This document shows, piece by piece, positions 2,786 to 42,042 of a stretch of DNA of 64,000 bases; within the stretch, counting starts at the first letter, position 1, and each line of letters starts with the position of its first letter. The notes beneath the pieces were generated by a model. That model was not told where the DNA came from and ran no database searches. It saw only the letters and a program-made list of their open reading frames with translations. The stretch spans positions 30,175 through 94,174 of the forward strand of contig JARIEY010000001.1 of the NCBI GenBank assembly GCA_031127085.1. Direction: 5' to 3'. The stretch is from Gemmatimonadota bacterium. Its GTDB lineage: Bacteria; Gemmatimonadota; Gemmatimonadetes; Gemmatimonadales; Gemmatimonadaceae. The position numbers and the translations under genes are program-made.

Positions 2786-5700
2786 TTATCCGGTCGGCGC
2801 CTCGAGGGCGCCGCGCAGCGCCACGGCAAGCTCCGCTGCCACGAAGGGCTTGCGCAGCAGCATCGTCCCGGCGAGCATCGGAGCGCCGCTCACCAGTGCT
2901 TCCGAATGTCCCGACATAAACACGAGACGCAGCGTGGGCCAGCGCCGCCGCACCTCCTCGGCGAGCGCAATGCCACCCATCTGCGGCATCCGGACATCGG
3001 TGAGCACGAGATCGATGCGCGCCTGCTCCGCCTCGAGTACCTGAAGCGCCTCGAGGCCATCGCGCGCCGTCACCACGGAATAGCCGAGCGTGCGCAGCGT
3101 GCGCTCGACCGTGTCACGCACCGCTTGCTCGTCCTCCACCAGCAGCACCCGTTCGCTCCCGTGCGGCGCCACCAAGGGCGCAGCGATTACGGATGGCGCA
3201 ACGCTCCCCTCGACGCGCGGAAAGTAGACCCGGAATGTCGACCCCTCGCCTTCGGCCGTGTCGACGACGATGTGCCCGCCGTTCTGCGACACAATGCCGA
3301 AGGCCGTGGCGAGGCCGAGCCCGGTCCCCTTCCCCGGTTCCTTGGTGGTGAAAAACGGCTCGAAGAGATGCGACTGCACCTCGGGTGACATGCCGACGCC
3401 GGTGTCGGCCACCTCGAGCACCACGTGGTCGCCCACGGCGAAGCCCGGGTGCGCGTCGACAAACGCCGCATCCAGCGCAACCGCGCGGGTACGAATCGTG
3501 AGTCGTCCGCCCTGCGGCATCGCGTCGCGCGCGTTCAATGCGAGGTTCAGCAGGACCTGTTCCAACTGACTGGGATCGGCGCGCACCGCCCAATCCCCTT
3601 CCAGCGCCTCGACGTGCAGCACGATGTTCTCGCTCAGCAGTCGGCGCACCAGTACGTCGGTGTGAGCCACCAGGTCGCCGAGCCGCAGCACGCGCGGCTG
3701 CACCACCTGTTTGCGCGCGAAGGCCAGCAGTTGGCGTGTCAGGTTGGCCGCGCGCATCGAGACCGTGCGCACCTCGTCGAGATCGGCGCGCAGGTGCTCG
3801 GGCACGTCCGGCTCGGAGAGGGCGAGTTCAGCGTGTCCAAGGATCGCGGTGAGCAGGTTGTTCAGGTCGTGCGCCACGCCGCCGGCCAGACGGCCGACGC
3901 TTTCGAGCTTTTGCGCGTGCAGCAGCTGCTGCTCCAGCCGTTCGCGCGCGGCCAGCGCTTCGGTGCGTTCGTGCACGAGCGTCTGCAAACGCGCCGCTTG
4001 GCGGTGCAGGATGCCCACGCGCCAGCGGTACGCGACCGTGCCGATGAACATCGCGAGCACCGCCAGCAGCGCCCAGAACCACGGACTGCTCGTGTACGAG
4101 GGCGTCGAGACGACGGTGACTTCGGCCGGAACCGTCGACGGCACGCCGTCGGCACTGACGGCGCGCACCACAAAGCGATAGCGTCCGCGAGGGACGCGCT
4201 CGTAATCGGCGACGCGCTGCAGCGAGTCGTCTACGCTGCGCCAGTCGCGATCCACGCCTTCCAGTCGGTACATCAGCCGCACCCGCGAGGGTGAGGCCAG
4301 CAGTGTCGCCGTGAACTCGATGCGCACGCGCGTCGTTCCGCGAGGCAACCGCACGTCGCCGCCCAGCGGCATCGACACGCCGTCGGCCAGCACACGTTCG
4401 ACGAACACCTGCGGCACCGTAGAGTCCGTGCGGATGTCACGTGGGTTCAGCAGCACCAGACCGGCCGTCGTCGGCAGCCAGAGCCGTCCCGACGCATCGC
4501 GAGAACCGGAGGAATTTCCCCCTTTGGCGAAGTCATGGCTGCGCAGGCCGTCTTCTCGCGTGAACAGGCGAGACGGCACATCGCGTGTGCTGTCGTCGAC
4601 AAACGCCAGCAGGTCCGCCTTGCGCACGCGCTGGAGTCCCTGGCCAGACATCAACCAGAGATGCCCTCGCCCGTCGTCAATGATGTTGAGCACCTGACTC
4701 ACGATCCCGGTTTTCGTCGGCGAAAACCGAAACAGCGTATCTCCGCGAATCAGCGACAGCCCCTCGTAGAACTGCCCGCTCCAGACGCCCATCGTGTCGG
4801 GAAGCACGTCCATCGCCTGACTGACGCTATCGCCGTTCGCCGCGATGAAGACCCGCAACGAGTCGTTCTCCAGCCGCGCGAGCTGCGCGCCCACCACCCA
4901 GACGGTGCCACGGCGATCTTGGGCCACCGAGTATATGCGCCCTGAGAGCACCCCCTTTCGGCGGGGCACCATGGTCAACCCGCGCGGGCCGCGCACCATG
5001 AGCGCCGTATCGGTGCCCACGTAGAACCGCCCAGCGTCGTCTTCCATGATGGAACGCACGCCGATCGGCGCAATCCCAAGCCGCGCCGTTTCGTCGACGA
5101 ATTGGTCGCCGGCCAACCGAGCGAGTCCGCGCTTGGTCCCGAGCCACAACGTGCCACGCCGACTCCGGTAGCTCGTCAGCACGACTTCGCTTGGCAGGCC
5201 GTCGGGCGTCGAGTAGGACTGCGTGCTCCCGTCCGCTGCGATGCGCACTGCGCCGTCGCCGCCCGTCCCCACCCAGACCGATCCATCGCGGTCGGCGCGC
5301 GCCGACCAGACGATCGACGTGGTCCAGATGCCCGCGCCGCGCCAGTTCTGCAGCGTCGGCACCCGCACGCGGGTGAGGCCGTCGACCATTCCCGCCCAGA
5401 CGTTTTCTTCTCGGTCGATGAACACGTCGGACACGTTATTGTCGGCCAACCCTTCCGCCGTTCCAAGCGACCGGAAGCGCCCGTTGGGCTCGAGCCGAGC
5501 AACACCGCCACCCAGCGTACCCACCCAGATCACGCCGCCGCGCTGCTCGACAATGCTGGACACGAAGACCGAACGCAGGCCGTCCCGCGCGCCATAGCGC
5601 CGCACCACGCGATACCGGTCCCCCGCGCCGCGCTCCATCTGCGCGAGCCCCTGACCCGTCGCGAGCCACATCGAACCGTCACGGGCGCGCAACAAGCGGA

Positions 5701-6439
5701 GCATGCGTGCGACGGCAAGCCACGGCACGTCGGAGTGCACCAGCCGACCGTCTCGCAGGTGGAACAACCCGAGGTCGGTGCCCACCCACAACTCGCCGCC
5801 GGCGTCTTCCGCGAGCGCATTCACATTGTGCGGCCCGCTCCCTCGCACCAGCGTGAATCGATCGCCAGACAATCGCGCCAGCCCGCTGCGCGTTCCCGCC
5901 CAGATGCGCCCCCGTCCGTCCTGATAGAGGGCATTCACGTCGGCATCCGGCAGGCCCTGCGTCACACCGTACGTGCGAAAACGGCCGTTCGCGTAGTGCA
6001 CGACGCCAGCGTGCATCGTCGCGATCCAGGTGGACCCGTCTCGCGCAACGAGCACGTCATTGAGATACTGGTCCGGCAGGCTGTCCGGGTACGCGGCGCC
6101 GTACGCGGTGTGCACGGTGAAGCGCAGCCCATCAAATCGCGCCAGCCCTGCATCCGTGGCCAGCAGGAGGTAGCCTTCAGGCGTCTGCGCAACGCGCCGC
6201 ACCAGATTACCGGGCAGTCCGCGCGTCCATGTGACGTGAACCACCTGATCGGCGAGTGAGCCCGCCGGACTGCCCTGCCCACTGGCGCGCTCACTGACCG
6301 ACGTGAAGAGCAGCCCCGCGACGATCAGGCTGCCACGGAGCGAGCGAACCGTCATGCGCCGGGGCACGGGCACCGGAGCAGCGAGCGTGGAGGACGCGGC
6401 AGCGCACGGTGAGGCGGCACGCCGCGTCGATGCGCTCAC
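2786..6439 (-). CDS. hybrid sensor histidine kinase/response regulator with large periplasmic beta-propeller-type sensor region
   Basis: 1217-aa ORF. Domain order: signal/TM; a long W/G-rich repeat region (WVGT..GL style); TM WFWALLAVLAMFIGTVAY; H-box GGVAHDLNNLL; N-box LNLALNARDAM; G-boxes VADTGVGM and GTGLGLA; C-terminal receiver (VLLVEDE ... LVLTDVRMPQMGG). The GTG at 6437-6439 overlaps the upstream stop (GTGA). The internal ATG at 6355 (MTVRSLRG) is an alternative start. Confidence 0.9.
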   Translation of the reverse strand: MSASTRRAASPCAAASSTLAAPVPVPRRMTVRSLRGSLIVAGLLFTSVSERASGQGSPAGSLADQVVHVTWTRGLPGNLVRRVAQTPEGYLLLATDAGLARFDGLRFTVHTAYGAAYPDSLPDQYLNDVLVARDGSTWIATMHAGVVHYANGRFRTYGVTQGLPDADVNALYQDGRGRIWAGTRSGLARLSGDRFTLVRGSGPHNVNALAEDAGGELWVGTDLGLFHLRDGRLVHSDVPWLAVARMLRLLRARDGSMWLATGQGLAQMERGAGDRYRVVRRYGARDGLRSVFVSSIVEQRGGVIWVGTLGGGVARLEPNGRFRSLGTAEGLADNNVSDVFIDREENVWAGMVDGLTRVRVPTLQNWRGAGIWTTSIVWSARADRDGSVWVGTGGDGAVRIAADGSTQSYSTPDGLPSEVVLTSYRSRRGTLWLGTKRGLARLAGDQFVDETARLGIAPIGVRSIMEDDAGRFYVGTDTALMVRGPRGLTMVPRRKGVLSGRIYSVAQDRRGTVWVVGAQLARLENDSLRVFIAANGDSVSQAMDVLPDTMGVWSGQFYEGLSLIRGDTLFRFSPTKTGIVSQVLNIIDDGRGHLWLMSGQGLQRVRKADLLAFVDDSTRDVPSRLFTREDGLRSHDFAKGGNSSGSRDASGRLWLPTTAGLVLLNPRDIRTDSTVPQVFVERVLADGVSMPLGGDVRLPRGTTRVRIEFTATLLASPSRVRLMYRLEGVDRDWRSVDDSLQRVADYERVPRGRYRFVVRAVSADGVPSTVPAEVTVVSTPSYTSSPWFWALLAVLAMFIGTVAYRWRVGILHRQAARLQTLVHERTEALAARERLEQQLLHAQKLESVGRLAGGVAHDLNNLLTAILGHAELALSEPDVPEHLRADLDEVRTVSMRAANLTRQLLAFARKQVVQPRVLRLGDLVAHTDVLVRRLLSENIVLHVEALEGDWAVRADPSQLEQVLLNLALNARDAMPQGGRLTIRTRAVALDAAFVDAHPGFAVGDHVVLEVADTGVGMSPEVQSHLFEPFFTTKEPGKGTGLGLATAFGIVSQNGGHIVVDTAEGEGSTFRVYFPRVEGSVAPSVIAAPLVAPHGSERVLLVEDEQAVRDTVERTLRTLGYSVVTARDGLEALQVLEAEQARIDLVLTDVRMPQMGGIALAEEVRRRWPTLRLVFMSGHSEALVSGAPMLAGTMLLRKPFVAAELAVALRGALEAPTG

Positions 6440-6705
6440 GCGACCGGGCGTTGCGCCATCAATCGGGCTACGGCGCCGTCTTCCTCGACAAAGGGGAGCA
6501 GCGCCGCCACCACGGCTTGTTCGGTCTCACCTTCCACCGCCATCAGTGGCGGGGGCGTGCGGCGCGCATCGATCCCTCGCGGCCCTGAGTTCCGGCGGTC
6601 AACCTCGATGACCGCGCGCACGGGGACGCCGTTCGCCGGCGTCAGCCGGCGAATGCGAACTGTCGCCCCTTCGGGCAGCATCCGTTCGTACAGGACTTCG
6701 CTCAC
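6436..6705 (-). CDS. hypothetical small protein
   Basis: Track ORF 6436..6765 trimmed to the GTG at 6703-6705, which is preceded by GGGGGAAG. Its stop overlaps the kinase start (GTGA). I recognise no family. Confidence 0.45.
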   Translation of the reverse strand: MSEVLYERMLPEGATVRIRRLTPANGVPVRAVIEVDRRNSGPRGIDARRTPPPLMAVEGETEQAVVAALLPFVEEDGAVARLMAQRPVA

Positions 6706-6783
6706 CCGCTTCCCCCCATAGCCACAGGCCCGCCTATATCTGCGGCACCCCGTCGCCCACCGCAAGCGGCGGCGCGCGGCGGG

Positions 6784-7131
6784 TCACTCTCCGGCGGGTG
6801 TCCCCAGCCGATGGAAGACCGCCTCGGCCACCGGGCGGCCATCGCGCAGGTGCTCGACCACGATGCGCTCAAGCAGCTCCGGGGTGACACCCCGGTACCA
6901 GACCCCCTCAGGGTAGACCACGACAATCGGCCCGCCCCCACAGACGCCAAGGCACGGCGCTTCGCTGCGCTTGATCCGTGTGGGACCAAAGAGCAGTCGC
7001 TCGCGCTGCAACAGCGCGGCGAGATGCGCGTAGAGCGCCCGCCCCCGCCGATCGGTAGAGCAGAACCCGCCCGTGCAGACGAGCACATGACGGGCGTAGG
7101 GTTCCATCACGACGACTTCGGTTTGGTGCAT
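6784..7131 (-). CDS. thioredoxin-like [2Fe-2S] ferredoxin
   Basis: The pattern [10 protein letters not shown] ... [20 protein letters not shown] (Cys-x-Cys ... Cys-x3-Cys) is characteristic of thioredoxin-like 2Fe-2S ferredoxins. The start could instead be the internal ATG at 7107. Confidence 0.75.
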
Positions 7132-7219
7132 GGGGCGCGCGGCTTGGGTTGCCCCAATCTACAGGGCGGTTCGCGCTCAGACGCTTGCCGAGCGTCCCGC
7201 ACCCATCCATCCTCCCCGC

Positions 7220-10054
7220 ATGCGAATTCACGTCCGCGCCGCCGCACTCGCCTGCGCGCTCCTCGCCGGCGCCGTCGGCGCCCAGCAGGCCGCTCCAGCA
7301 CCGACCGCCTCAGCACCGACCGCGCCGCTGCCGGTCGACCCCGCCATTCTACAGGGGACCCTTCCCAACGGGCTGCGCTATTTCGTGCGCCGCAACGAGA
7401 AACCCCAGCGGCGCGCGGAACTGCGGCTCGTGGTGCGCGCGGGCTCCGTGCTCGAGGACGACGATCAGCGTGGCTTGGCGCACTACGTGGAGCACATGGC
7501 CTTCAACGGCACGTGGCGCTTCCCCAAGCAGGACATCGTCTCGTTTCTCGAGCGGGCCGGCATGCGGTTTGGCGCGGACCTCAATGCGTACACGGGGTTC
7601 GAGGAAACCGTGTATATGCTGCAGATCCCCACCGACACCGCCGCGCTGCTCTCCAAGGCGCTCGACATCTTGCAGGATTGGGCCTCGGCCGTGTCGTTCG
7701 ACAGCACCGAGTTTGCGCGCGAGCGCGGGGTCGTGATCGAGGAATGGCGTACAGGGCGCGGCGCCGGGCAGCGCATCAGCGAACGGCAGTTTGCGGTGCA
7801 GTTCAAGGGATCGCGCTACGCCGATCACTTTCCGATTGGCACCAAAGAGAGCCTCGACACCGCCACGCTCGCCGCGGCACGACGGTTCTATACGGACTGG
7901 TACCGTCCCGACCTGATGACGGTCATTGCCGTCGGCGACTTCGACGCGACGGCGGTGGAGGCGGCCATTCGCACGCGCTTCGGTGCGTTGCGCGCCCCCG
8001 CCTCTCCGCGAGCGCGACTGGCGTATGACGCCCCGGATCATTCGGACACGCGCGTGGTGGTGTCGGCGGACCGCGAGTTTCCGCAGAGCATCGCGCAGAT
8101 CGAGTGGCTGCTGCCGCTGCGGCCGCGCGGCACCGTGGGCGCGTGGCGCACCTCGCTCGTTGCCGGCATCTACACCGCGCTGCTCTCGCAGCGACTCGGC
8201 GAACTCTCGCAGCGGGAAAGCACCCCGTTTGCGTTCGCCTACGCCGGCAGCGGGTCGCTGCTCCCGACGCGTGACGCGTTCACCGCGGCCGCCGTGGTCA
8301 AGGATGGCCGCTTCGTCGACGCGCTGGCCGCGACGCTCGGGGAGTTGGAGCGCGCCAATCGCTTCGGCTTCACCGCCACCGAATTGGAGCGCCAGAAGGC
8401 CAGTTTGCTTCGTTCGTTTGAACGCAGCGTGTCGGAGGCGGCCAAGACGGACTCAAAGGTGTACGCGGAGCAGATGGTCCGTCACGTCCTCCGTCAGGCG
8501 AACATCGCCCACCCCGATCAAATGCTGCGGCTGGCGAAGGACGTGCTGCCCGGCGTGACGCTGGGCGAGGTGAACGCGGCGGCATCGGCCTGGATGCCCG
8601 AGGGGAACCGCACGATCGCCGTGGCCGCGCCAGCGCGCCCCGATGTGATCCTGCCCACCGACTCGGCACTCCGCACCGTCTTTTCAAAGGTGAAGGGCGC
8701 CGCGCTCGCGGCCTATGTCGACTCCACGGCCGACCAGCCGCTCGTGGCCCGTCCGCCCACACCGGGTCGCGTCGTCACGAGCCGCGCGATCGACGACCTG
8801 GGCATCACCGAGTGGACGCTCTCCAACGGCGTCCGGGTGCTGCTGAAGCCCACCGACTTCAAGAACGACCAGGTGCTCTTGAGCGGACGGCGAGCGGGAG
8901 GGTATTCAGTGTTGGGCGACGCCGACCACAAGGTCGCCACCCTGTCCGAGTTCGTGCTCGGCGGCGCCGGCGAGTTCAGCGAGAACCAGCTGCGCCGCAT
9001 GCTCACCGGCAAGGTGGCCACGGCCGGTGTCTCGGTGAGCGAGCACGGCGAATCGGCCTACGGGTCGGCGTCGCCGCGCGACCTGCCCACGATGTTCGAA
9101 CTGCTCTGGCTCAACGCCACGGCGCCCCGTCTCGACACCGCGTTGTTCAACGCCGGGCGCTCGCAGCTGAAGGCGGCCATGCAGAACAGCCGCAATACAC
9201 CCGCACAGGCCTTTGGTGACACCATCGATGTGGTGATGGCCAACTACCACCCGCGCGTTCGCCTGTTCCAGCCCGAGCAGCTCGACTCGCTGGATGTACC
9301 GCGGGCCTTCGCGCTGTACCGTGAGCGCTTCCAGTCGTTTCGCGATTTTACGTTCTACATCGTCGGAAACTTCACGCTCGACGGCATCCGGCCCCTGGTG
9401 GAACGCTACCTCGGCGCGCTCCCGACCGGCGGCGCCGCCACGTCATTCGTCGATCGCGGCATCCGTCCGCCCCGTGGTGTCGTGCGCCGCGAAGTCCGCC
9501 GCGGCACCGACCCCAAGGCGCAGTCACGCATCACCTTCCACGGCGACTTCGACTATTCGTGGGAGCATCGCCTGGAGTTGGACGCGCTGCAGCAGCTGCT
9601 GGAGATGCGCTTTCGCGAGGCCCTGCGCGAGGAGAAGAGCGGCACCTACGGCGTCGGCGTCGATGCCTCGGGCAGTTGGATCCCGTACAAGCGCTACCGT
9701 ATTGCGTTCAGCTTCGGCTCTGCGCCCGAGCGCGTCGACGAGCTCGCCGCCGCCGCCTTTGCCGTCATCGACTCGGTGCAGCGGACCGGCCCCACCGACG
9801 ACGAAATGGCCAAGATCCGCGAAACGTTCATTCGCGCACACGAGACCGGCTTGCGCGAGAACACCGCCTGGATTGGCTGGATGAGCGATCACGACGAGGA
9901 CGGCCGAGACCAACACGCCACGGTGCAGTATCCGGCGCTGGTGCAGCGGCTCACGGCGCAACAGCTGCGCGATGCCGCCCGGCGCTACCTCAACCGGGAC
10001 CAGTACGTGCGCTTCACGCTGCTTCCCGAGGAGGCGCGGAAGGCCGTCCCGTAG
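7220..10054 (+). CDS. M16-family (pitrilysin/insulinase-like) zinc peptidase, fused two-half form, secreted
   Basis: Track ORF 7130..10054 trimmed to ATG 7220 (MRIHVRAAALACALLAGAVGAQQ, a signal peptide). It carries the inverted zinc motif HYVEHMAFNG (HxxEH). A length of about 940 aa equals two M16 halves. Confidence 0.9.
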   Translation: MRIHVRAAALACALLAGAVGAQQAAPAPTASAPTAPLPVDPAILQGTLPNGLRYFVRRNEKPQRRAELRLVVRAGSVLEDDDQRGLAHYVEHMAFNGTWRFPKQDIVSFLERAGMRFGADLNAYTGFEETVYMLQIPTDTAALLSKALDILQDWASAVSFDSTEFARERGVVIEEWRTGRGAGQRISERQFAVQFKGSRYADHFPIGTKESLDTATLAAARRFYTDWYRPDLMTVIAVGDFDATAVEAAIRTRFGALRAPASPRARLAYDAPDHSDTRVVVSADREFPQSIAQIEWLLPLRPRGTVGAWRTSLVAGIYTALLSQRLGELSQRESTPFAFAYAGSGSLLPTRDAFTAAAVVKDGRFVDALAATLGELERANRFGFTATELERQKASLLRSFERSVSEAAKTDSKVYAEQMVRHVLRQANIAHPDQMLRLAKDVLPGVTLGEVNAAASAWMPEGNRTIAVAAPARPDVILPTDSALRTVFSKVKGAALAAYVDSTADQPLVARPPTPGRVVTSRAIDDLGITEWTLSNGVRVLLKPTDFKNDQVLLSGRRAGGYSVLGDADHKVATLSEFVLGGAGEFSENQLRRMLTGKVATAGVSVSEHGESAYGSASPRDLPTMFELLWLNATAPRLDTALFNAGRSQLKAAMQNSRNTPAQAFGDTIDVVMANYHPRVRLFQPEQLDSLDVPRAFALYRERFQSFRDFTFYIVGNFTLDGIRPLVERYLGALPTGGAATSFVDRGIRPPRGVVRREVRRGTDPKAQSRITFHGDFDYSWEHRLELDALQQLLEMRFREALREEKSGTYGVGVDASGSWIPYKRYRIAFSFGSAPERVDELAAAAFAVIDSVQRTGPTDDEMAKIRETFIRAHETGLRENTAWIGWMSDHDEDGRDQHATVQYPALVQRLTAQQLRDAARRYLNRDQYVRFTLLPEEARKAVP

Positions 10055-10060
10055 CGCTCG

Positions 10061-10381
10061 TTACTCGGGAATCTTGTTGTCACCCGGCGGAGCGACGTAG
10101 CGCAACGCCTCCACCGGCGTACCGCCGGCGAGGTGCTCGCTGACGATCTGCGCCGCACCGGCGGGGGTGACGCCGTGGTACCAGACGTCTTCCGGATAGA
10201 CCACGACCATCGGTCCGTGGCCGCACTGCCCGAGGCAGCCGGAATGGTTGACGCGCACGGACTCCTTGAGCCCGGCCTCCACCACGGCCGTGCGCAGCGC
10301 GTTGAAGATGTCCTTGGAGTCCTTCGCAGAGCAGTTCTTGCCCGCGGTGCATACGAAGACGTGCTGCGGATATTGTCCCAT
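10061..10381 (-). CDS. thioredoxin-like [2Fe-2S] ferredoxin (paralogue of 6784..7131)
   Basis: Track ORF 10061..10747 trimmed to the ATG at 10379-10381 (MGQYPQHVFVCTAGKNC ... GCLGQCGHGPMVVVYPEDVWYHGV). The N-terminal 122 codons of the track ORF are Arg/Gly/His-rich noise. Confidence 0.75.
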   Translation of the reverse strand: MGQYPQHVFVCTAGKNCSAKDSKDIFNALRTAVVEAGLKESVRVNHSGCLGQCGHGPMVVVYPEDVWYHGVTPAGAAQIVSEHLAGGTPVEALRYVAPPGDNKIPE

Positions 10382-10444
10382 ACAGGAAAAGTAGCGGACC
10401 GGCAGCCCGATGCGCCGCCCTCCGGGGATCGCTAGTTTCGGCGG

Positions 10445-10777
10445 ATGCCGACCCCCCACGATTTCTTCGACATCGACATTCGCGTTGGGACGGTGCTCGC
10501 CGCCGAACCGTTTGCACGCGCCGCGAAGCCCTCGATCCGGCTGGAGATCGACTTCGGCCCCGAACTCGGCATCCGGCGGTCGAGCGCGCAACTCACGGTG
10601 CACTACACCCCTGACGCGCTGGTTGGCCGTCAGGTGATCGCCGTCACCAACATTGGCACGCGCAACATCGCCGGATTCACCAGCGAGGTGCTCGTGCTGG
10701 GCGCTATGCCTACCCCCACCGAAGTCGTCCTGCTTGCCGTCAGCCACCCCGTGGCCAACGGCACGCGCATCGGTTGA
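10445..10777 (+). CDS. csaA: tRNA-binding OB-fold protein (CsaA-like)
   Basis: 110 aa. FDIDIRVGTV ... IRLEIDFG ... GRQVIAVTN ... SEVLVLG matches the EMAP/CsaA-type tRNA-binding domain. Confidence 0.7.
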   Translation: MPTPHDFFDIDIRVGTVLAAEPFARAAKPSIRLEIDFGPELGIRRSSAQLTVHYTPDALVGRQVIAVTNIGTRNIAGFTSEVLVLGAMPTPTEVVLLAVSHPVANGTRIG

Positions 10778-27853: not shown

Positions 27854-27946
27854 GATGCGTGCGTAATCGCTCTGGGTGAACAGTACGCGTATTCGGGGCG
27901 CGAATCAATCGGGGCCGCCCCCGGCAGCGCCGTTAGATTTCCGTCG

Positions 27947-28729
27947 ATGCTCACGGTGCTGACCCACGACGATGTGACGGAGCTGCGCTTCAGCACGTGG
28001 CGCAGCCGGCTGTCGAGGATGCGCGTCAGCGCCTTCGTGACGCGTGGCACGCTGTTCGACAGCGGTTTTCCGGTGGCCACGCCCGCACTGACGCAGTGGC
28101 TGCGCCGCCATCCGGTGCAGGCGGCGGCGCTCACGCACCACCACGAAGATCACGCCGGCGGCGCCTGCGCGCTTGCCGCGCTGGCCGTCCCCCTGTGGAT
28201 TCCGGATGCAGCGCGCGCGCTCGTCACCGCGCCGCCACGCGTGCTGTTCTACCGGCGCTTCTCCTGGGGAAGCCCGGCCCCGCTCGGCCCGTACATTGCG
28301 GCGGCCCTTCCGTTGGGGATCGAAGCAATCCCTACCCCTGGTCACACGGCCGATCACCACATCTTCTGGGATGCCGGCACCGGCACGGTCTTTGGCGGCG
28401 ACCTCTTTATCGGCGTGAAGGTGCGTATCGCGCACGCCAGCGAAGATCCCCGGGCCACGTCGGCCTCGCTGCGACGTATTGTCGCGCTCGCGCCGCGCCG
28501 TTTCTTCGACGCGCACCGCGGGCTCCTTTGCAATCCGGCTGCGTTGCTTACGGCCAAGGCCGATTGGATAGACGCCATGGTGGATCGCGTCGAACAGCTC
28601 GCGGCGCAGGGTCTCAGCGATGCAGACATCGCTCGTCGCGTGCTCGGGTCGGACCGGCTCGGCCGCTGGTATACGGCTGGCGATTACACCATGGAGAACT
28701 GGGTGCGCGGGGTGCGGCGGCACCGCTAG
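27947..28729 (+). CDS. MBL-fold metallo-hydrolase
   Basis: 260 aa with the HHHEDHAGG (HxHxDH) motif. Confidence 0.8.
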   Translation: MLTVLTHDDVTELRFSTWRSRLSRMRVSAFVTRGTLFDSGFPVATPALTQWLRRHPVQAAALTHHHEDHAGGACALAALAVPLWIPDAARALVTAPPRVLFYRRFSWGSPAPLGPYIAAALPLGIEAIPTPGHTADHHIFWDAGTGTVFGGDLFIGVKVRIAHASEDPRATSASLRRIVALAPRRFFDAHRGLLCNPAALLTAKADWIDAMVDRVEQLAAQGLSDADIARRVLGSDRLGRWYTAGDYTMENWVRGVRRHR

Positions 28730-28780
28730 CACCGCGCGCGTCTTCCCTGTGTCAGTGCGCGAGCACATTCTTGGCGGGCC

Positions 28781-31700
28781 ATGACTGATACCGTTGCCTC
28801 ATCCGTTGTCCCGGCCGACGTACTCGTTCGTCTGCGGCAACTCGCCGACGATTGGCGCGATATCGATGCCAACGAGCGGGCCGCGTTCCAGACCTGGTTC
28901 CTGAAGTTCTGCGAGGCGCTCGATGTGCCGGGCCCGGTGCCGCCCCACGACGACTATCGGTTCGAACTGCCCGTTAGGGTGGTGGATCGCGAGGGGACGG
29001 AGAGTTCCAACTTCATAGATTGCTGGAAGGCGGGGCACTTCGCACTCGAGGCCAAGGCCACGGGCGAGGCCAAGCCGGAGCGCGCCCTGCGCCGCGCATT
29101 CGGACAGGTGCGCAACTACGCCGCGCATGTTTCTGGTGACAGTCCGCCTTTTTTGATGGTGGTCGACATCCCCCGCACGCTCATGGTGTGGGACCGGTGG
29201 TCGGGGTCGTACGGCGATTTTGCGGCGGGCAAGCGTATCGCGTTGCTCACACTGCATGAGCGCCCAGACGATGTGGCGTTGTTGCGCGACATCCTCACCA
29301 ACCCTGCGGCCCGCGATCCCCGGGGGAGGGCGCAGGCGGTGACGCAGGCCATTGCGGGGCGGCTGGCCCATCTAGCCGCGCGGCTCGAGAGTCGGGGCTA
29401 CGAGCAGGAGCGCGTCGCACGCTTCCTGATGCGGTGCGTTTTTTCGTGTTTCGCCGAGGATGTGGGACTGCTCCCCACGCGGCTCTTTGAGCGCACACTC
29501 GAAACGGCTCGTGTGGCGGGTGGCCCGGAGCATGTGGGGCGCGTGCTTTCGCAGCTCTGGCAGACGATGGATGCCGGCGGCTCGTTTGGCGCCGACCTCG
29601 TGCACCGTTTCAACGGGCATTTCTTCAAGACGGTGGAGTCGCTGCCGCTCGATGCGGACGACATTGACCTGCTCGTCGACGCATCGCGCTTTGACTGGGC
29701 GCGGGTGGAACCGTCCATCTTTGGCACCTTGCTGGTGCGTGCGCTCGACCCCGCCGAGCGCCACCGACTGGGCGCCGAGTACACGCCGCGCGCGTATATC
29801 GAGCGGCTGGTGGAGCCCACGGTGGTGGAGCCCATCCGCGAGCGGTGGACGGCGGTGCAGGGGTCGGTGTTGCAGCTCGAAGAGTCGGGGAAGAAGAAGG
29901 ACACCGACGCCGCGCTCACGACGCTCGTTGAGTTCCACGCCTGGATGCGTGGGCTGCGCTTTCTGGATCCCGCGTGCGGCAGCGGCAACTTCTTGTATGT
30001 GACCATGGCGGCCGTGAAGCGCGTGGAGCTGGAGGTGTTGCACGAGATTGAGCGCGTGTCGGGCGGCCAGGGCGGGTTGGTGCTCGAGGAGGTGCATCCG
30101 CGGCAGTTCTACGGCATCGAGATCAAGCCGTGGGCCCGCGAGATCGCCGAGCTGACGCTGTGGATTGGCTATCACCAGTTTTGGCGCGATGCGCATGGCG
30201 GTCGGACGCCGCCCGATCCCATTCTCGAGGACACCGGCACGCTCGAGTGCCGCGACGCGATTCTCGCGTATGACGGGGTACGGCATGTGCCGGCGAAGGA
30301 CCGGCCGGACCCGACGCCGCGGCTGGTGCATCCGGTGACGGGGGAGTTGGTGCCGGATCCCAGCGCGAGGTTGCCGTACTACGAGCACATCAACGCGCGC
30401 CCCGCCGAGTGGCCGGCGGCGGATTTCATTGTGGGGAATCCGCCGTATCTAGGTCAAGCACGCCAGCGAGAGGCGTTCGGCGACGGATACGTCGAAGCGC
30501 TTCGGAGCGCCTATCCGATGCTGCCAGATAGCATCGACCTCGTGATGTACTGGTGGTATCGGTCTGCCGCTTGCGTAGCGGGAGGAACGGCCGCTCGCGC
30601 TGGGCTGATTACGACGAACTCCATTACCCAGCTGCAAAACCGCGCGGCAATCGCGGCAGCCCGCGAACTAGGCGCGAACGTGATTTGGGTCGTTCCCGAC
30701 CATCCGTGGAGAGCTGAGAGCGATGGTGCATCGGTCAGGGTCGCGCTGACGGTGATGGGCACATCGTCGGGCGCCGCCACTCTCGTGAGAGTGGACGATG
30801 ACGCGCGCATTCTCTTCAAGCATCAGCATCGTGGGTCTCTTAACGACGACTTGTCAGCGGGGGCCGACGTTGCCACCGCTGCTCGTACACCACTTCGGTC
30901 GCAGGCTGGACTTGCGTCACCAGGTCTGAAATTGCACGGACCCGGGTTCATACTTCTTGCCGACGAGGCAACCAACCTCATCGCGGCGGATCCGCCTATC
31001 TCGAGTGTGATTCGCCCGTACAGAAACGGAAGGGACCTCGCAACCCGCCCACGCGAAGTCTTCGTCATCGATTTTGGAGTTCTTAGCGAACAAGAGGCTC
31101 GCGACTTCACCGTACCGTTCGACATCGTGAGAAGTCGAGTCAAGCCGGAGCGCGACTCAAACAACGATCGATCGACGCGCGCGCACTGGTGGAGGTTCGG
31201 CAGAAACCGCGAGGACTTTCGACCGGCCCTCGCGGGAATCAAGCGATACTTCGCTACTCCGGAGACTTCGGCGCATCGAGTTTGGACGCCGTTACCGCAC
31301 ACGGTCGCTCCCGACAACACTCTCGTATGCGTCGCTGTCGAAGACGGATGGGTCTTCGGCGTCCTCTGTTCGACAGTGCATACCGCGTGGGCGATCGCTG
31401 CGGGCTCGCGACTTGGCATCGGCAATGACGCTCGATACAACAAGACACTCTGCTTCGACCCCTTCCCCTTCCCTGACGCCTCGCCCGATCACCGCGCGAC
31501 GATCGCCGCCATCGCCGAGCGCCTCGACGCGCACCGCACCGCCGCGCTTGCGCGCGACGAACGCGTCACCATGACCGGCATGTACAGCGTCGTCGAGAAG
31601 CTCCGCGCCGGCACCGCGCTCACCCCGAAGGAACGCGTCATCCATGAAATCGCCGCCTGCGGCGTGCTCAAGGACATTCACGACGAGCTCGACGCCGCCG

Positions 31701-32143
31701 TCGCCGCCGCGTATGCCTGGCCGTGGCCCATGCCCACCGAGGAGATTCTGGAGCGGCTGGTCGCGCTGCACGACGAGCGCGTGGCCGAGGAGCAACGCGG
31801 CCTCGTGCGCTGGCTGCGCCCCGAGTACCAGATTCCGCGCTTCGGTGTTGGCACGCAACCGGCCGCGCTCGCGCTCGACGACGTGCCGACGCGCTCCTCG
31901 CCAGAGGCGAAAACGCCGGCCGCGGAGGTACCCGCTGTCGCGTGGCCCGACACCGCCGTCGAGCAGATCACGCTGATCAGTGCCGCGCTCGCTCAGGGCG
32001 CGCAGTCGCCGGAAGTGCTGACGGCTCGCTTTGCGGGGGCAAAGCGGGAGCTGGTCGAACGCCATCTGGAGACGTTGGCGTTGCTCGGCGAGGCACGACG
32101 ACTGCCGCGCGGCTCGTATGCTGGAGCGAGAGCTCAGTCATGA
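28781..32143 (+). CDS. MmeI-family (Type IIL/IIG) single-chain restriction endonuclease / N6-adenine DNA methyltransferase
   Basis: 1120 aa. The N-terminal FIDCWKAGHFALEAK gives D-x9-E-x-K (PD-(D/E)xK type). NERAAFQTWF resembles the MmeI N-terminus. AdoMet motif I is FLDPACGSGNFLYV. Catalytic motif IV is GNPPYLG. A long region follows, where target-recognition and C-terminal domains would be expected. Confidence 0.8.
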   Translation: MTDTVASSVVPADVLVRLRQLADDWRDIDANERAAFQTWFLKFCEALDVPGPVPPHDDYRFELPVRVVDREGTESSNFIDCWKAGHFALEAKATGEAKPERALRRAFGQVRNYAAHVSGDSPPFLMVVDIPRTLMVWDRWSGSYGDFAAGKRIALLTLHERPDDVALLRDILTNPAARDPRGRAQAVTQAIAGRLAHLAARLESRGYEQERVARFLMRCVFSCFAEDVGLLPTRLFERTLETARVAGGPEHVGRVLSQLWQTMDAGGSFGADLVHRFNGHFFKTVESLPLDADDIDLLVDASRFDWARVEPSIFGTLLVRALDPAERHRLGAEYTPRAYIERLVEPTVVEPIRERWTAVQGSVLQLEESGKKKDTDAALTTLVEFHAWMRGLRFLDPACGSGNFLYVTMAAVKRVELEVLHEIERVSGGQGGLVLEEVHPRQFYGIEIKPWAREIAELTLWIGYHQFWRDAHGGRTPPDPILEDTGTLECRDAILAYDGVRHVPAKDRPDPTPRLVHPVTGELVPDPSARLPYYEHINARPAEWPAADFIVGNPPYLGQARQREAFGDGYVEALRSAYPMLPDSIDLVMYWWYRSAACVAGGTAARAGLITTNSITQLQNRAAIAAARELGANVIWVVPDHPWRAESDGASVRVALTVMGTSSGAATLVRVDDDARILFKHQHRGSLNDDLSAGADVATAARTPLRSQAGLASPGLKLHGPGFILLADEATNLIAADPPISSVIRPYRNGRDLATRPREVFVIDFGVLSEQEARDFTVPFDIVRSRVKPERDSNNDRSTRAHWWRFGRNREDFRPALAGIKRYFATPETSAHRVWTPLPHTVAPDNTLVCVAVEDGWVFGVLCSTVHTAWAIAAGSRLGIGNDARYNKTLCFDPFPFPDASPDHRATIAAIAERLDAHRTAALARDERVTMTGMYSVVEKLRAGTALTPKERVIHEIAACGVLKDIHDELDAAVAAAYAWPWPMPTEEILERLVALHDERVAEEQRGLVRWLRPEYQIPRFGVGTQPAALALDDVPTRSSPEAKTPAAEVPAVAWPDTAVEQITLISAALAQGAQSPEVLTARFAGAKRELVERHLETLALLGEARRLPRGSYAGARAQS

Positions 32144-33759
32144 GCATGTCACCCGTGCAGATTGACGCGTGGCTGGCCTTGCCATCGGAGCACGAGCATC
32201 TCGAATTCAAGTTGGCAGCGACGTCATTCCCGATGGACAGGCTGCTCGACTACTGCGTCGCAATTGCGAATGAGGGAGGTGGCCACATCGTCCTCGGTGT
32301 CACCGACGCGCTCCCGCGCCGCGTGCTCGGAACACTCGCCTTTCCAAACGTCCAGGAGACGAAGGAGCGGCTGTTCGAGATACTCCGCCGACGCATTGAA
32401 GTCGACGCGGTGGACCATCCCAATGGACGTGTCCTCGTATTCACGATTCCAAGCCGGCCGCGCGGCGAAGCGTTGCATCGCGATGGCCGCTATCTCATGC
32501 GTGTTGGTCAAGATCTCGTACCAATGTCGTTCGATCGATTGCAGGCGATCGCCGCCGAGGCACAGGTCGATCCCTCGGCGCACTTGGTTGAAGGCGCTTC
32601 CGTCAACGACCTCGATGGCGGCATGATCGCCCACTTTCGCGCGCAGTGGATCCGGAAGTCCGGAAATGCGGCGCTCGCCGCCGCGACGGACGCGCAGCTT
32701 CTCGCTGACGCCGGACTATTGCTCGACGGTGCGGTCACCATCGGCGCCCTGGTCCTGTTCGGTACCGAAGCGTCGAATCGGAGATTCCTTCCGCAGGCTG
32801 AGGTGATCTTCGAGTATCGGTCGTCAGAAGGCGAGATCTCCTACCAGCAACGCGTCGCCTTTTGCTCCGGCTTCTTCGGCTTCGGCGATGAACTCTGGCG
32901 TCTTATTGACTCCCGCAACGACCGACAATCGTACCAGGACGGGCTCTTTCGTTACGAGATTCGCACGTTTGACGAAGGAGCGGTCCGCGAGGCTATCCTG
33001 AACGCCGTCAGCCACCGAGACTACGCGAACGGCGGATCGGTCTTCGTGCGACAGTACCCGCGTCGATTGTCGGTGGTGAGCCCGGGCGGGCTGCCGTCCG
33101 GCATCACGCCGGCAAACGTCCTGGATCGCCAGTTTCCGAGAAATCGCTCAATCGCGCACGCGCTTGAGCTGTGCGGCCTGGTTGAGCGCTCAGGGCAGGG
33201 CATGAACCGCATGTTTGAGCGCTCCATCACGCAAGGCAAGCCGATTCCCGACTTCGCGGATACCGACGCATTCCAAGTCGGGATCAATCTGCATGGCGAC
33301 CTGAAGCATCCCTCGTTCGTTCGGTATCTCGAAAAACTCGGGAGCGAACGGGTCGAGTCGTTCACCACCCAAGACCTGTTGGTTCTCGACTTCGCTCAGC
33401 GCGGGGCAACGGTGTCGGACGAGCTTCGCCCACGCGTGGAGAGGCTCCTGGATATCGGCGCCGTGGAACGCCTCGGGCGCCGTCTGATCCTCTCTCGCGA
33501 TCTCTACGCGGGCATGGGACAGTTGGGAGTGTACACGCGAAGAAAGGGTCTTGCCCACGATGCGCAGAAAGAAATTCTACTGCAGCACATCAGAGAAAAT
33601 GCCGTGCTCGGCAGTCCGCTGTCCGAACTGGTTCAAGTGCTCCCCAGCGTCTCTGACCGGAGCGTCAAGCGGCTTCTACAAGAGCTGAAGGTTGAGGGCA
33701 AGATCCTACCCGTTGGCCAACGGCGCTGGGCTCGCTGGCGCCCGGTGCAGTCCGAGTAA
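32140..33759 (+). CDS. AlbA_2 / HATPase_c_4-type putative DNA-binding ATPase-like protein (often annotated RecG-like or transcriptional regulator)
   Basis: Track ORF 31723..33759 trimmed to ATG 32140, which overlaps the methyltransferase stop (ATGA). Motifs: EHEHLEFK (AlbA_2-like), AILNAVSHRDY, PRNRSIAHALELCGLVERSGQGMNRM, and a C-terminal winged-helix-like tail. The gene is noticeably AT-richer than its neighbours. Confidence 0.7.
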   Translation: MSMSPVQIDAWLALPSEHEHLEFKLAATSFPMDRLLDYCVAIANEGGGHIVLGVTDALPRRVLGTLAFPNVQETKERLFEILRRRIEVDAVDHPNGRVLVFTIPSRPRGEALHRDGRYLMRVGQDLVPMSFDRLQAIAAEAQVDPSAHLVEGASVNDLDGGMIAHFRAQWIRKSGNAALAAATDAQLLADAGLLLDGAVTIGALVLFGTEASNRRFLPQAEVIFEYRSSEGEISYQQRVAFCSGFFGFGDELWRLIDSRNDRQSYQDGLFRYEIRTFDEGAVREAILNAVSHRDYANGGSVFVRQYPRRLSVVSPGGLPSGITPANVLDRQFPRNRSIAHALELCGLVERSGQGMNRMFERSITQGKPIPDFADTDAFQVGINLHGDLKHPSFVRYLEKLGSERVESFTTQDLLVLDFAQRGATVSDELRPRVERLLDIGAVERLGRRLILSRDLYAGMGQLGVYTRRKGLAHDAQKEILLQHIRENAVLGSPLSELVQVLPSVSDRSVKRLLQELKVEGKILPVGQRRWARWRPVQSE

Positions 33760-33907
33760 CGTTCTATGGACCAGTCGCTGGTGGTTCTTGGTCCGCCTGC
33801 CAGCGAAACGATCACGTAAGTGCTTATTGCACAACGTATTATATGACCCTTCGGGATGCATTCAGTGGCTTTAGAGACGGCCAGAGACCCCGCATCCGGT
33901 TCGCCCT

Positions 33908-34897
33908 TCACACCAGCCGCACGAACCGCCCGAACCGCGGCGTGCGAACAAACCGCACCTCCCCCGGCCGCTCCACACGCCCGTTATCGACGGACTCCAC
34001 CAGTCCGAACTCCGCCAGCGGAATCAGGTAGGAGAGCAGCACGAAGAGGGAGCAGCAGTCGAGCGAATCTTCATCGAGGTGCTGCGGTGCGGAGAGCGGT
34101 GGCGTGAACGCCGCTCGCGTCAGCGACTCCACCGAGAACTCGTCGTGCTTCATGCGACAGAGCGCCCGGATCACCATCGCCGGTTGACGCACGCCGACGA
34201 CGAGTGCGTCAAACTCGGTGGTATCCGTCGGTGCCACCACGCGCAGCCGCGCGTCACACACCAGCGCTGCCAGCCGTCCTGATTCCAGACCGCGCGCCAT
34301 CCGCTCGCCGTCGCGGCTCAGCACCACGCCGCCCGCTCCATCGACGAGCAGCCCGGCCTCGAACAGCGTGGCGATATAGTCGGCCGTGTGCGCCCGCGCC
34401 TCGCGCGGCGTCATGGGCACGGGCAGCGCCAACTCGGCGATCGCCTCGCCCACTTCATCGGCAATCGCCCCCACCGTGCGCGCCGAGATCTTCCCGGTTT
34501 TCGTCGTGCGCACCACGCCGCGCCGCGCCCACTCCGCGAGGATGGCGCGCGTGGTCCGCATCGCCGGCTGTGCGTCCCACGGCTCATCGTCAAGGTCGAG
34601 CCGCAGCCGAATCGGCCCGTCTCCCAACCACGTCGAGTGGAACAGCCGCCCCGCCTCGACTGGTGTCAGCCCGTGCAGTGCCAGTTGCGGCGTGGTGTTG
34701 AGCGCCTCCATATGCGCCGACAGGAAGGCGTTCACCTGCACCAACGACTCCCAGCCGCCCGGCGGACAGTTAGACTCGAGTGCTTCGTGGATGCCACTCA
34801 CGGAACGCGGCGGTGCCTCGCGCGAGGATGGTCCCCCGCGCGCGGCCTTCGACGGCGCCTTCGGCCGTCGCGGGGCGCTCCGCCGCTTCTTCGTCAC
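33908..34897 (-). CDS. hypothetical protein with basic N-terminal tail
   Basis: 329 aa. The GTG start overlaps the stop of the deoxyhypusine-synthase-like gene (GTGA). It begins [23 protein letters not shown] recognise no family. Confidence 0.6.
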
Positions 34898-40550: not shown

Positions 40551-41587
40551 GCGGCGCGCTCCCCACGGGTTTTTCGCACCGCCTCAAGACGCAGGCCTAC
40601 GCGGCCGGGTTCGACCTCGCGGGCATTGCTGCGCTGGGTGTGCCGGAGACGGCAGCGCGGTTCGATGACTGGCTGACGCAGGGGTACCACGGCGAAATGG
40701 CGTACCTCGCGCGCGGCGCCGAGTTGCGCCGCGACGCGCGGCGCCCGGTGGCGGGGATGATCAGCGCACTTGTCGTCGGGCTCAACTACGGCGGCACGCA
40801 GCCCAGTGGACCGGTGGCGCGTTACGCACGCTTTGCCGACTACCACCGAGTGATGTGGGACAAGCTCGACGCGCTGCTCGCGTGGGTGCGTACGGAGCTC
40901 GGCGACGTGCGCGGCCGGTCATTCGTCGACAGCGGCCCCGTGCTGGAGCGCGACCTCGCGCAGCGCGCGGGGCTTGGCTGGTTCGGCAAGAACACGTTGC
41001 TCATCAACCCGCGCGTCGGGTCGTTCTTTTTTCTGGGCGCGCTCTTTCTCGACGTCGCGCTCGAACCCGACGACGCCTTCGCGACCGACCACTGTGGCAC
41101 GTGCACGCGCTGTCTGGATGCCTGCCCCACGCAGGCGTTCGTGGCGCCGCGCGTCCTCGACGCCCGCCGGTGCATCTCGTATTTGACTATCGAGTTAAAA
41201 GGGGACCATACGCCGGAGCAGGCGGCGATGGTGGGCGAGCATCTGTTTGGGTGTGATGTGTGTCAGGAGGTGTGCCCGTGGAACGCGAAGTTCTCGCGGG
41301 CGGCGACGGAACCGGCGTTTTCTCCTTTGGCGCGGCTTGCAACGTCCGACGCCCGGGAGCTGGCGCGCGCCTTCCTGGCCATGACCCCGGCCGAGTTCAC
41401 GGCGGAACTCAAGCACACTCCCCTGTCGCGCGCCAAGCTGTCCGGGCTCCAGCGCAACGCCGGCGCTGTGCTAGGAAAGGCGGACCCTGCCGCCGATGTG
41501 ACAGCGCCTTCCGAGGACTTGTCCGACTCCGACGCCTCTGAGCGCTCGGCTACTGATGTCCAGACCCTAGCTGGAGACCCACAATGA
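40547..41587 (+). CDS. queG: epoxyqueuosine reductase
   Basis: 346 aa. Motifs: YHGEMAYL, GLGWFGKNTLLI, and the two 4Fe-4S motifs CGTCTRCLDACP and CDVCQEVCPWN. Confidence 0.85.
   Translation: MSGALPTGFSHRLKTQAYAAGFDLAGIAALGVPETAARFDDWLTQGYHGEMAYLARGAELRRDARRPVAGMISALVVGLNYGGTQPSGPVARYARFADYHRVMWDKLDALLAWVRTELGDVRGRSFVDSGPVLERDLAQRAGLGWFGKNTLLINPRVGSFFFLGALFLDVALEPDDAFATDHCGTCTRCLDACPTQAFVAPRVLDARRCISYLTIELKGDHTPEQAAMVGEHLFGCDVCQEVCPWNAKFSRAATEPAFSPLARLATSDARELARAFLAMTPAEFTAELKHTPLSRAKLSGLQRNAGAVLGKADPAADVTAPSEDLSDSDASERSATDVQTLAGDPQ
41264..41319 (+). repeat. 56-nt direct repeat, copy 1 (inside queG)
   Basis: caggaggtgtgcccgtggaacgcgaagttctcgcggg cg gcgacggaaccggcgtt. It matches 46652-46707 at 54 of 56 positions. 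Confidence 0.9.
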
Positions 41588-42042
41588 ACATGCGACTGCC
41601 GATCCTCGGACTCGTGCTTTCTCTCGCCGGCGCGAACGGCGTCGTTGCCCAGACTTCCGCAGTGGGACACGAACTCACGCAGCTTTCGAAAGACAAATGG
41701 CAGTGGATGGCGGACAAGGACGTGGGCAAACTCGAACCGCTGTTCCATGACAGATCGAAGTTTGTGCACATGGGAGGTACCTGGGGGAAGGCCGAGGAAC
41801 TCGACATCATCAAGTCCGGCCGAATCTGGTACAAGCAGACCGATGTCCACGCGGCAGTCTCGGAAGTGTTCGAGAATACTGCCATTGTATGGAGTCGCAT
41901 CACGCTTCATGCGATGCTCGGGAGCAACGAGGTGGTGACGGAGTTCACGGTCACCGAGGTCTTCCAGAGGCAGGGTACGGCCTGGAAGATCCTGGATCTG
42001 ACCTTCAGCAGTGTTCGGGACAACCACCGGATTCGGGAGTAG
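41584..42042 (+). CDS. NTF2-like (DUF4440/SnoaL-type) secreted protein
   Basis: 152 aa. The ATG overlaps the queG stop (ATGA). The signal peptide is MNMRLPILGLVLSLAGANGVVAQ. The gene is visibly AT-richer than its surroundings. Confidence 0.6.
   Translation: MNMRLPILGLVLSLAGANGVVAQTSAVGHELTQLSKDKWQWMADKDVGKLEPLFHDRSKFVHMGGTWGKAEELDIIKSGRIWYKQTDVHAAVSEVFENTAIVWSRITLHAMLGSNEVVTEFTVTEVFQRQGTAWKILDLTFSSVRDNHRIRE

Follow-up and report, generated by a model that had tools for sequence, protein, structure and literature searches.

The window analysed here, a 64,000-nucleotide stretch of contig JARIEY010000001.1 from a Gemmatimonadota bacterium, carries two overlapping genes: gene 1, which encodes an MmeI-family restriction-modification enzyme, and gene 2, which encodes a Schlatpase-HTH protein built from a Schlafen nuclease domain, a GHKL ATPase core and a C-terminal helix-turn-helix (HTH) region. 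Both open reading frames (ORFs) and their characteristic motifs are intact. Close relatives of gene 2 were found embedded in many different restriction-type operons, and the pairing with an MmeI-type enzyme did not recur in either direction. The reading that we favour, with moderate confidence, takes gene 2 to be a promiscuous second-layer effector, expressed together with any restriction system behind which it happens to land.

A preliminary description of this locus, made from the sequence alone, had proposed that the two genes form a candidate two-gene defence module, in which gene 2 would act with the enzyme as a sensor, regulator or second effector. The 1120- and 539-amino-acid (aa) ORFs, the motifs quoted for them and the overlap of the second ATG with the first TGA were all present in the sequence, and Pfam searches bore out the MmeI-family and AlbA_2/HATPase_c_4 assignments. 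The start position of gene 2 was backed by the N-terminal register of an alignment of its orthologues, and both gene products were 100% identical to proteins from a Gemmatimonadota metagenome-assembled genome (NCBI). The ATGA overlap reflects operon organisation and nothing more specific. Genes 1 and 2 are very probably co-transcribed and translationally coupled.

The segments EHLEFK, NAVSHRDY and RNRSIAHALELCGLVERSGQGMNRM all occur in gene 2, and the first of the motifs listed for it in Table 1 has the form Ex4(E/D)xK that defines the Schlafen catalytic motif (PMC13056530). When 28 orthologues from many phyla (51-68% identity) were aligned, E17 and K24 were invariant and E22 was at least 90% conserved. 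The N-box E284-x3-N288, G316-G317 and G352-x-G354 of the ATPase core were all invariant in the same alignment, and E284 and N288 would correspond to E314 and N318 of RzAgo, judging by the E-x3-N pattern. The AlphaFold2 model of gene 2 was confident (mean predicted local distance difference test score, pLDDT, 86.6) and contained helix-helix-helix-strand-strand units at residues 391-451 and 473-535. When the model was searched with Foldseek, the full length matched an uncharacterised Protein Data Bank (PDB) entry, 3LMM (E ~1e-27), and the N-terminal domain matched the nuclease domains of mammalian SLFN5/11/13/14 (E 1e-4 to 2e-3). Weak matches were obtained for the middle of the protein to ATP-bound histidine kinases and PDK2/4 (E 0.01-0.06), and for the C-terminus to the winged helices of ScpB, MarR, SelB and ESCRT-II (E 0.009-0.07). 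The model and these weaker matches back the winged-helix-like tail of the preliminary description. A reading of gene 2 as a RecG helicase, taken from Pfam and JGI names, was rejected, as the protein has no helicase domain and its fold is that of GHKL ATPases. With PF04326, PF13749 and a C-terminal HTH, and with intact Ex4ExK and GHKL boxes, gene 2 is a standard Schlatpase-HTH protein, also called pSlfn-HisKinase-HTH. Prokaryotic Schlafens have this architecture more often than any other (Perez Taboada et al. 2026, PMC13056530), and for the Schlatpase supradomain 60,692 proteins have been counted, the majority of which are small or end in a short C-terminal HTH (bioRxiv 10.64898/2026.05.29.728809).

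Gene 1 matched four Pfam models of the MmeI family, all above the curated cut-off of 27 bits (MmeI_N, 45 bits; MmeI_hel, 54.9; MmeI_Mtase, 116.8; MmeI_TRD, 40.9), and the PADLOC model REase_MTase_IIG (PDLC03627) covered it over its full length with 1256 bits. A phmmer comparison with the MmeI-DNA structure 5HR4 (PMC4833311) gave an E-value of 2.5e-46, with an alignment spanning chain residues 64-827. The segment FIDCWKAGHFALEAK in gene 1 supplies D80-x9-E90-x-K92, and the aligned MmeI residues D70/E80/K82 are defined as catalytic (PMC2731913). D80, E90 and K92, together with motif I and NPPY, were invariant across 16 members of the gene 1 subfamily, mostly from Gemmatimonadota. No match to Pfam MmeI_C was obtained in gene 1 at E <= 0.01; the subfamily has a conserved C-terminal extension of about 200 aa that lies inside the full-length PDLC03627 match, and this C-terminus was conserved whether gene 2 was present or absent. 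The target recognition domain (TRD) stood out from the rest of the enzyme. The segment at 30827-31414 was 47% identical to the syntenic homologue, compared to 81% in the N-terminal two thirds, the G+C content at third codon positions (GC3) was 0.67 compared to 0.82, and the subfamily alignment held few invariant columns here. A specificity domain that has been replaced or that evolves fast would account for this, the divergence being the usual signature of specificity-domain turnover.

Gene 1 resembles the MmeI family (Type IIL, or IIG/IIS) in its PD-ExK motif, helical spacer, gamma-class N6-adenine methyltransferase motifs I and IV and TRD, in its length, which falls within the 908-1184 aa of family members (PMC2731913), and in having no separate methyltransferase gene nearby; no methyltransferase domain was found in the flanking genes, which are housekeeping genes. 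It differs in belonging to a long, mainly Gemmatimonadota subfamily with the C-terminal extension, and in having a translationally coupled neighbour, whereas no conserved co-localised gene has been reported for the family (Morgan et al. 2009, PMC2731913). In this respect the preliminary description rightly placed the partner outside the textbook picture of Type IIL enzymes. Gene 1 as a member of a BREX or DISARM system was considered and rejected, as the matches to the PglX and DrmMI models were partial or weak and partner genes were absent from the flanks. From its motifs, their conservation and its length, gene 1 is a complete, regular and probably active Type IIL enzyme, in which a single chain would recognise an asymmetric site through the TRD, methylate one adenine for self-protection and cut unmodified DNA at a distance. 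In the MmeI family, AdoMet-dependent cleavage falls about 20/18 nt from such a site, and m6A is placed on one strand.

The neighbourhoods of gene 2 orthologues were surveyed in loci from a genome-collection scan (80 fetched and 78 analysable, 47-58% identity, many phyla). Genes at up to two positions on either side were clustered and annotated with Pfam and PADLOC, and the restriction counts obtained in this way are lower bounds. At least 39 of the 78 orthologues were located between core genes of restriction-type systems, with restriction genes within two genes. One order, Hma/BREX-related type 1, consisted of the SNF2-NOV_C helicase-nuclease HmaA, the Schlatpase gene, a DUF1156 methyltransferase (HmaB) and a HEPN-DUF499 ATPase, and HmaA was found directly upstream of the orthologue in 20 of 73 loci. 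Other partners were a Type III-like system with DUF4391, an N6_N4 methyltransferase and a Res subunit, a ResIII helicase with an N6_N4 methyltransferase, Type I systems (beside HsdR) and DISARM (DrmMI). The exact 4-nt overlap with the upstream gene was seen in 19 of the 78 loci, 15 times as ATGA. The closest relative of gene 2, P0002 (68% identity), sits between hsdS and hsdR with the same 4-nt overlap, and P0003 (69% identity) has a Type III-like pair and VapBC/PIN genes as neighbours. In a neighbour-joining tree of gene 2, built without bootstrap, partner types were interspersed, indicating repeated partner switching, and the gene in the window grouped with relatives associated with Type I and Type III systems. 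The gene 2 family is tied to restriction systems in general and not to MmeI-type enzymes in particular.

Two further features were seen among these loci. In L037, L046, L047 and L055, which belong to a single clade of Hma/BR type 1 loci, the Schlatpase gene is followed immediately by a conserved ORF of 199-243 aa without a Pfam match (in L046, at 9645-10373), and the DUF1156 (HmaB) methylase comes after it. In L007, a single 1478-aa ORF at 6244-10677 combined an N-terminal DUF1156 with an IS200-like Y1_Tnp match at residues 757-834, and this may be a fusion, an insertion or an artefact of ORF calling.

Recurrence of the pair was examined from both sides. When the 78 gene 2 loci were searched with gene 1 by tblastn, an MmeI-related gene adjoined the orthologue in one locus, L070, where it was the DISARM methylase DrmMI; in L053, a weak gene 1 match was located 2.7 kb from the orthologue. 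Among 74 loci with gene 1 homologues from a metagenome scan (38-74% identity), including the syntenic relatives at 72-73% identity, no gene 2-like sequence was found. The pairing is therefore a singleton in the loci examined, non-recurrent in either direction. The preliminary description had stated that its proposal would fail if gene 2 homologues lacked enriched adjacency to MmeI-like genes, and such enrichment is absent from these counts (1/78 and 0/74). L070 is the sole other locus in which the upstream partner has an MmeI-like methyltransferase-TRD half. In this locus (3836-9629) the gene 2 orthologue directly follows a 1374-aa DrmMI (PADLOC, 1774 bits), and a SNF2-type helicase lies further upstream. 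A search of a plasmid collection with gene 2 returned only 13 distant or partial matches, three of them short N-terminal fragments at 56% identity and the others at about 25-33%.

A comparison with the syntenic relatives outlined the slot that gene 2 occupies. The window was colinear from 22.0 to 32.1 kb with L159/L160, in which the gene 1 homologue is 72% identical, and with L158 (73%), and the housekeeping neighbours were 83-92% identical. The tblastx colinearity with L159 and L158 ended at about the stop codon of gene 1. Similarity to L159 restarted at a deoxyhypusine-synthase-like gene (~34.9 kb), and the L158 sequence ends earlier. The slot between these points has a different content in each of the relatives (Table 1), such that the region behaves as a small defence/cargo hotspot and gene 2 is lineage-specific cargo. 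Its composition was also atypical: gene 2 had 61.4% GC, compared to 63-69% in the flanking genes (0.64-0.74 in their 500-nt windows), a GC3 of 0.73, compared to 0.82-0.90 in flanking native genes, and it lies in the 32-34 kb bin, which at GC 0.618 is the lowest 2-kb bin in the whole window. The direction of the AT enrichment in the preliminary description was correct and its size was overstated, as the value given there was 57-58% GC. The atypical composition and the absence of the slot from the syntenic relatives suggest that gene 2 was recently acquired. The context of GreA and Lactamase_B genes on one side and the deoxyhypusine-synthase gene on the other was found around gene 1 only in the two closest independent relatives, and gene 1 is thus not a universally fixed anchor.

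Characterised relatives of gene 2 suggest how such a protein could act. Prokaryotic Schlafens, RorSlfn5 among them, are phage-activated tRNases (PMC13056530). In SLFN-pAgo, the ATP switch of the GHKL domain brings about tetramerisation, after which tRNA is cleaved, and Schlatpase modules have been exchanged with Type I restriction-modification operons (bioRxiv 10.64898/2026.05.29.728809). Schlafen proteins with a histidine-kinase-type domain and a winged HTH occur inside BREX and BR loci of at least 1017 taxa and were proposed to be backup suicidal effectors (PMC12839542). Gene 2 has the same architecture, its orthologue loci reproduce the HmaA-Schlatpase-DUF1156-HEPN-DUF499 context, and in both cases the accessory gene shares an operon with restriction genes. 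In contrast to those loci, the partner of gene 2 is a single-chain Type IIL enzyme and not a multi-gene BREX or BR system. A Schlatpase-HTH gene inside a restriction-type operon is a phenomenon that was already published in 2026. A Type IIL enzyme as its partner appears to be undescribed: PMC12839542 makes no mention of an MmeI, Type IIG or Type IIL partner, and we found no mention of any of these together with Schlafen in the literature searched.

On our reading, genes 1 and 2 form an operon that sits within a small variable island in the Gemmatimonadota chromosome. Schlatpase-HTH genes would move between restriction-type operons and settle inside them, and one would have landed directly behind gene 1, where it would be translated in step with that gene. 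Its role would most likely be that of a second-layer, abortive-infection-type effector. By analogy with the relatives described above, ATP bound by the GHKL domain would drive oligomerisation, which would assemble the Schlafen active site, and the assembled site would cleave tRNA when restriction fails to stop an infection. The trigger might be an anti-restriction factor, or DNA that is foreign or damaged, sensed via the winged-helix region. Partners of at least six unrelated architectures are served by near-orthologues, which makes a generic trigger probable and a specific contact with the MmeI-type enzyme less likely.

A precedent for this arrangement is the anticodon nuclease PrrC, which is encoded inside the Type Ic EcoprrI operon and forms a second line of defence when restriction is countered. 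PrrC has an ABC-type ATPase, is held inactive by association with EcoprrI and is released by the Stp peptide of phage T4. The closest relative of gene 2 occupies the equivalent position between hsdS and hsdR. Only the operon position is analogous. The nuclease domain of PrrC is unrelated to Schlafen and its ATPase is of a different type. PrrC has also been named as a tRNase precedent in work on prokaryotic Schlafens (PMC13056530).

Several observations weigh against a second-layer effector. The pairing is unique in our data, so the co-expression of genes 1 and 2 may be incidental. About half of the orthologue loci had no recognised restriction neighbour, by a classification that is a lower bound, and the protein may work alone. 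The same slot holds unrelated defence cargo in the relatives, which plain clustering in a defence island explains equally well. ATP-dependent oligomerisation and tRNA cleavage are documented for fused relatives only, the Argonaute-fused one (bioRxiv 10.64898/2026.05.29.728809) and other Schlafen fusions (PMC13056530). Finally, the HisKinase-type Schlafen fusions assayed in E. coli gave no protection against a phage panel from which only the DUF262 and Ig-like fusions protected (PMC13056530).

The main alternative, somewhat less likely but still plausible, sees in gene 2 an autonomous Schlafen defence of one gene, which shares a hotspot and, by an accident of insertion, a transcript with gene 1, the two neither needing nor sensing each other. 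The lack of recurrence in both directions, the other candidate defence cargo in the slot of the syntenic relatives (TcmP/DUF5131; DUF433/PIN) and the many loci lacking a restriction neighbour all fit with autonomy, as does the finding that the prokaryotic Schlafens characterised so far work as systems of a single gene, each with a sensor fused to it (PMC13056530). Against it stand the orthologues that lie between core genes (HmaA-[gene]-HmaB and hsdS-[gene]-hsdR) and the 19 of 78 that have the 4-nt overlap, as such positions and overlaps are hard to explain without selection for co-expression. The absence of defence by HisKinase-type fusions alone also speaks against autonomy, a negative that cuts both ways.

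If gene 2 is instead a second-layer effector that truly cooperates with gene 1, the locus would be a minimal model for how Schlafen-GHKL effectors are layered onto restriction, a question raised by the 2026 comparative-genomics papers. A broader proposal, which we regard as rather unlikely, is that stand-alone Schlatpase-HTH proteins are generic guards against restriction failure, translationally coupled behind any adenine-methylation-based restriction system and firing their tRNase when that system is blocked or overrun. Their hosts would be Type I, Type III-like, Hma/BR and DISARM systems and, here, a single-chain Type IIL enzyme. With a single restriction protein and a single guard, this locus would in that case be the smallest form found in nature, and hence the simplest in which the cross-talk could be reconstituted.

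It is improbable that gene 2 is a DNA-binding regulator, analogous to the controller protein of a restriction enzyme, which would set the expression or timing of gene 1 through its winged-helix domains, with the Schlafen and GHKL parts serving only as ligand-binding or oligomerisation modules. A predicted winged-helix C-terminus, the names given to relatives in some databases ('transcriptional regulator' or 'putative DNA binding domain-containing protein') and the need of restriction-modification systems for expression control would be consistent with such a role. However, the Ex4ExK motif and the ATP-site residues are conserved across many phyla, which argues for an enzymatic function, and a regulator is unlikely because these catalytic-type residues are invariant. 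Moreover, gene 2 is downstream of gene 1 and dependent on its translation, whereas known controller proteins precede or overlap the nuclease gene, and the same protein occurs in at least six unrelated operon types, whose promoters could not be shared.

That gene 2 is a dedicated, co-evolved partner of MmeI-type enzymes in a new two-gene Type IIL module, as the preliminary description had it, is highly improbable: the intact ORFs with their ATGA overlap, the L070 orthologue that follows a DrmMI sharing the MmeI-like methyltransferase-TRD half and the lack of any mention of the combination in the literature searched could be cited for it, but the adjacency counts, the C-terminus of gene 1 that is conserved regardless of gene 2 and the Type I and Type III contexts of the nearest gene 2 relatives all oppose it. 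What stands of the proposed two-gene defence module is the very probable co-expression and the membership of both genes in defence-associated families; a pairing specific to MmeI-type enzymes does not stand, with different genes in the slot of the two closest syntenic relatives. The locus is of mostly confirmatory value, in that a Type IIL enzyme joins the restriction architectures that host a Schlatpase-HTH gene. It further shows that pairings of this kind come about through recent, lineage-specific capture and not through long co-evolution. The textbook view of MmeI-type enzymes as self-sufficient is unchanged.

Table 1. Features of the gene 1-gene 2 locus and of the variable slot downstream of gene 1 (positions refer to the window unless a locus is named)
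Feature	Position	Strand	Description
Gene 1	28781..32143	+	Intact ORF, 1120 aa, MmeI-family Type IIL/IIG restriction-modification enzyme
PD-ExK nuclease motif D80-x9-E90-x-K92	29018..29056	+	Aligns with MmeI D70/E80/K82
S-adenosylmethionine (AdoMet)-binding motif I DPACGSGNF	29966..29992	+	Residues 396-404; aligns with MmeI DPACGCGNF
Methyltransferase catalytic motif IV NPPY	30437..30448	+	Residues 553-556; aligns with MmeI NPPF
Target recognition domain	30827..31477	+	Hypervariable, atypical composition; Pfam MmeI_TRD residues 719-899
ATGA start/stop overlap of gene 1 and gene 2	32140..32143	+	Read from sequence; ATG 32140-32142, TGA 32141-32143
Gene 2	32140..33759	+	Intact ORF, 539 aa, Schlatpase-HTH protein
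Catalytic-type motif E17-x4-E22-x-K24	32188-32211	+	Fits Ex4(E/D)xK
Schlafen/AlbA_2 nuclease domain	32188..32526	+	Residues 17-129; Pfam SLFN_AlbA_2 (PF04326), E 5.5e-12
GHKL (Bergerat-fold) ATPase core	32974..33294	+	Pfam HATPase_c_4 (PF13749), residues 298-380, E 2.3e-13
C-terminal winged-helix (HTH) region	33310..33744	+	Probably two tandem domains; AlphaFold2 secondary structure, weak Foldseek matches
Tail between convergent genes	33760..33907	.	148 nt, AT-richer, without detected functional element
Lineage-specific variable slot	32144..34893	.	Gene 2, tail and 329-aa ORF; without counterpart in syntenic relatives
Slot content, window			Gene 2 and 329-aa ORF with native-like composition
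Slot content, L159	L159 10396-12460		TcmP (TIGR04474) and DUF5131, matching PADLOC candidate systems PDC-M30/M41
Slot content, L158	L158 5508-6782 and 10546-12143		DUF433 and PIN (coordinates given jointly with the upstream insert)

Genes 1 and 2 are flanked by thiolase, BNR, GreA, Lactamase_B-fold, deoxyhypusine-synthase-like, LOG and acyltransferase genes. In agreement with the preliminary description, neither an integrase nor BREX partners were found among these flanking genes; DISARM partners were likewise absent from them, and 22-40 kb consists of housekeeping genes that are colinear with the relatives. No PglZ, DUF499 or helicase gene was found in the flanks of the pair and no tRNA gene in the window, and the direct or inverted repeats around the pair were short ones only, at chance level. 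The 148-nt tail had an RNA fold z-score of -0.64, which is not significant, its terminator-like sites did not exceed the expectation from shuffled sequences, and it had no Rfam match.

The 329-aa ORF that shares the slot with gene 2 (33908-34897, minus strand) had a native-like GC3 of 0.84, and 4 nt are shared between the most upstream start of this ORF and the stop of the deoxyhypusine-synthase-like gene. The ORF was considered as a third component and rejected, as it had no match in Pfam, NCBIfam or PADLOC and was absent from L159 and from all gene 2 orthologue loci. In L158, an upstream insert carries an AAA_14/DUF4143 ATPase, a catalase and a LysR gene. Upstream of gene 1, the Lactamase_B-fold gene (27947-28729, plus strand) was 53-55% identical between the syntenic relatives, compared to 83-92% for its neighbours; a longer minus-strand ORF that lies over it (27905-28768, GC3 0.71) is probably spurious. 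Further downstream, at 41500-41999, the GC content dipped to 0.586, the lowest 500-nt value in the profile from 22 to 42 kb.

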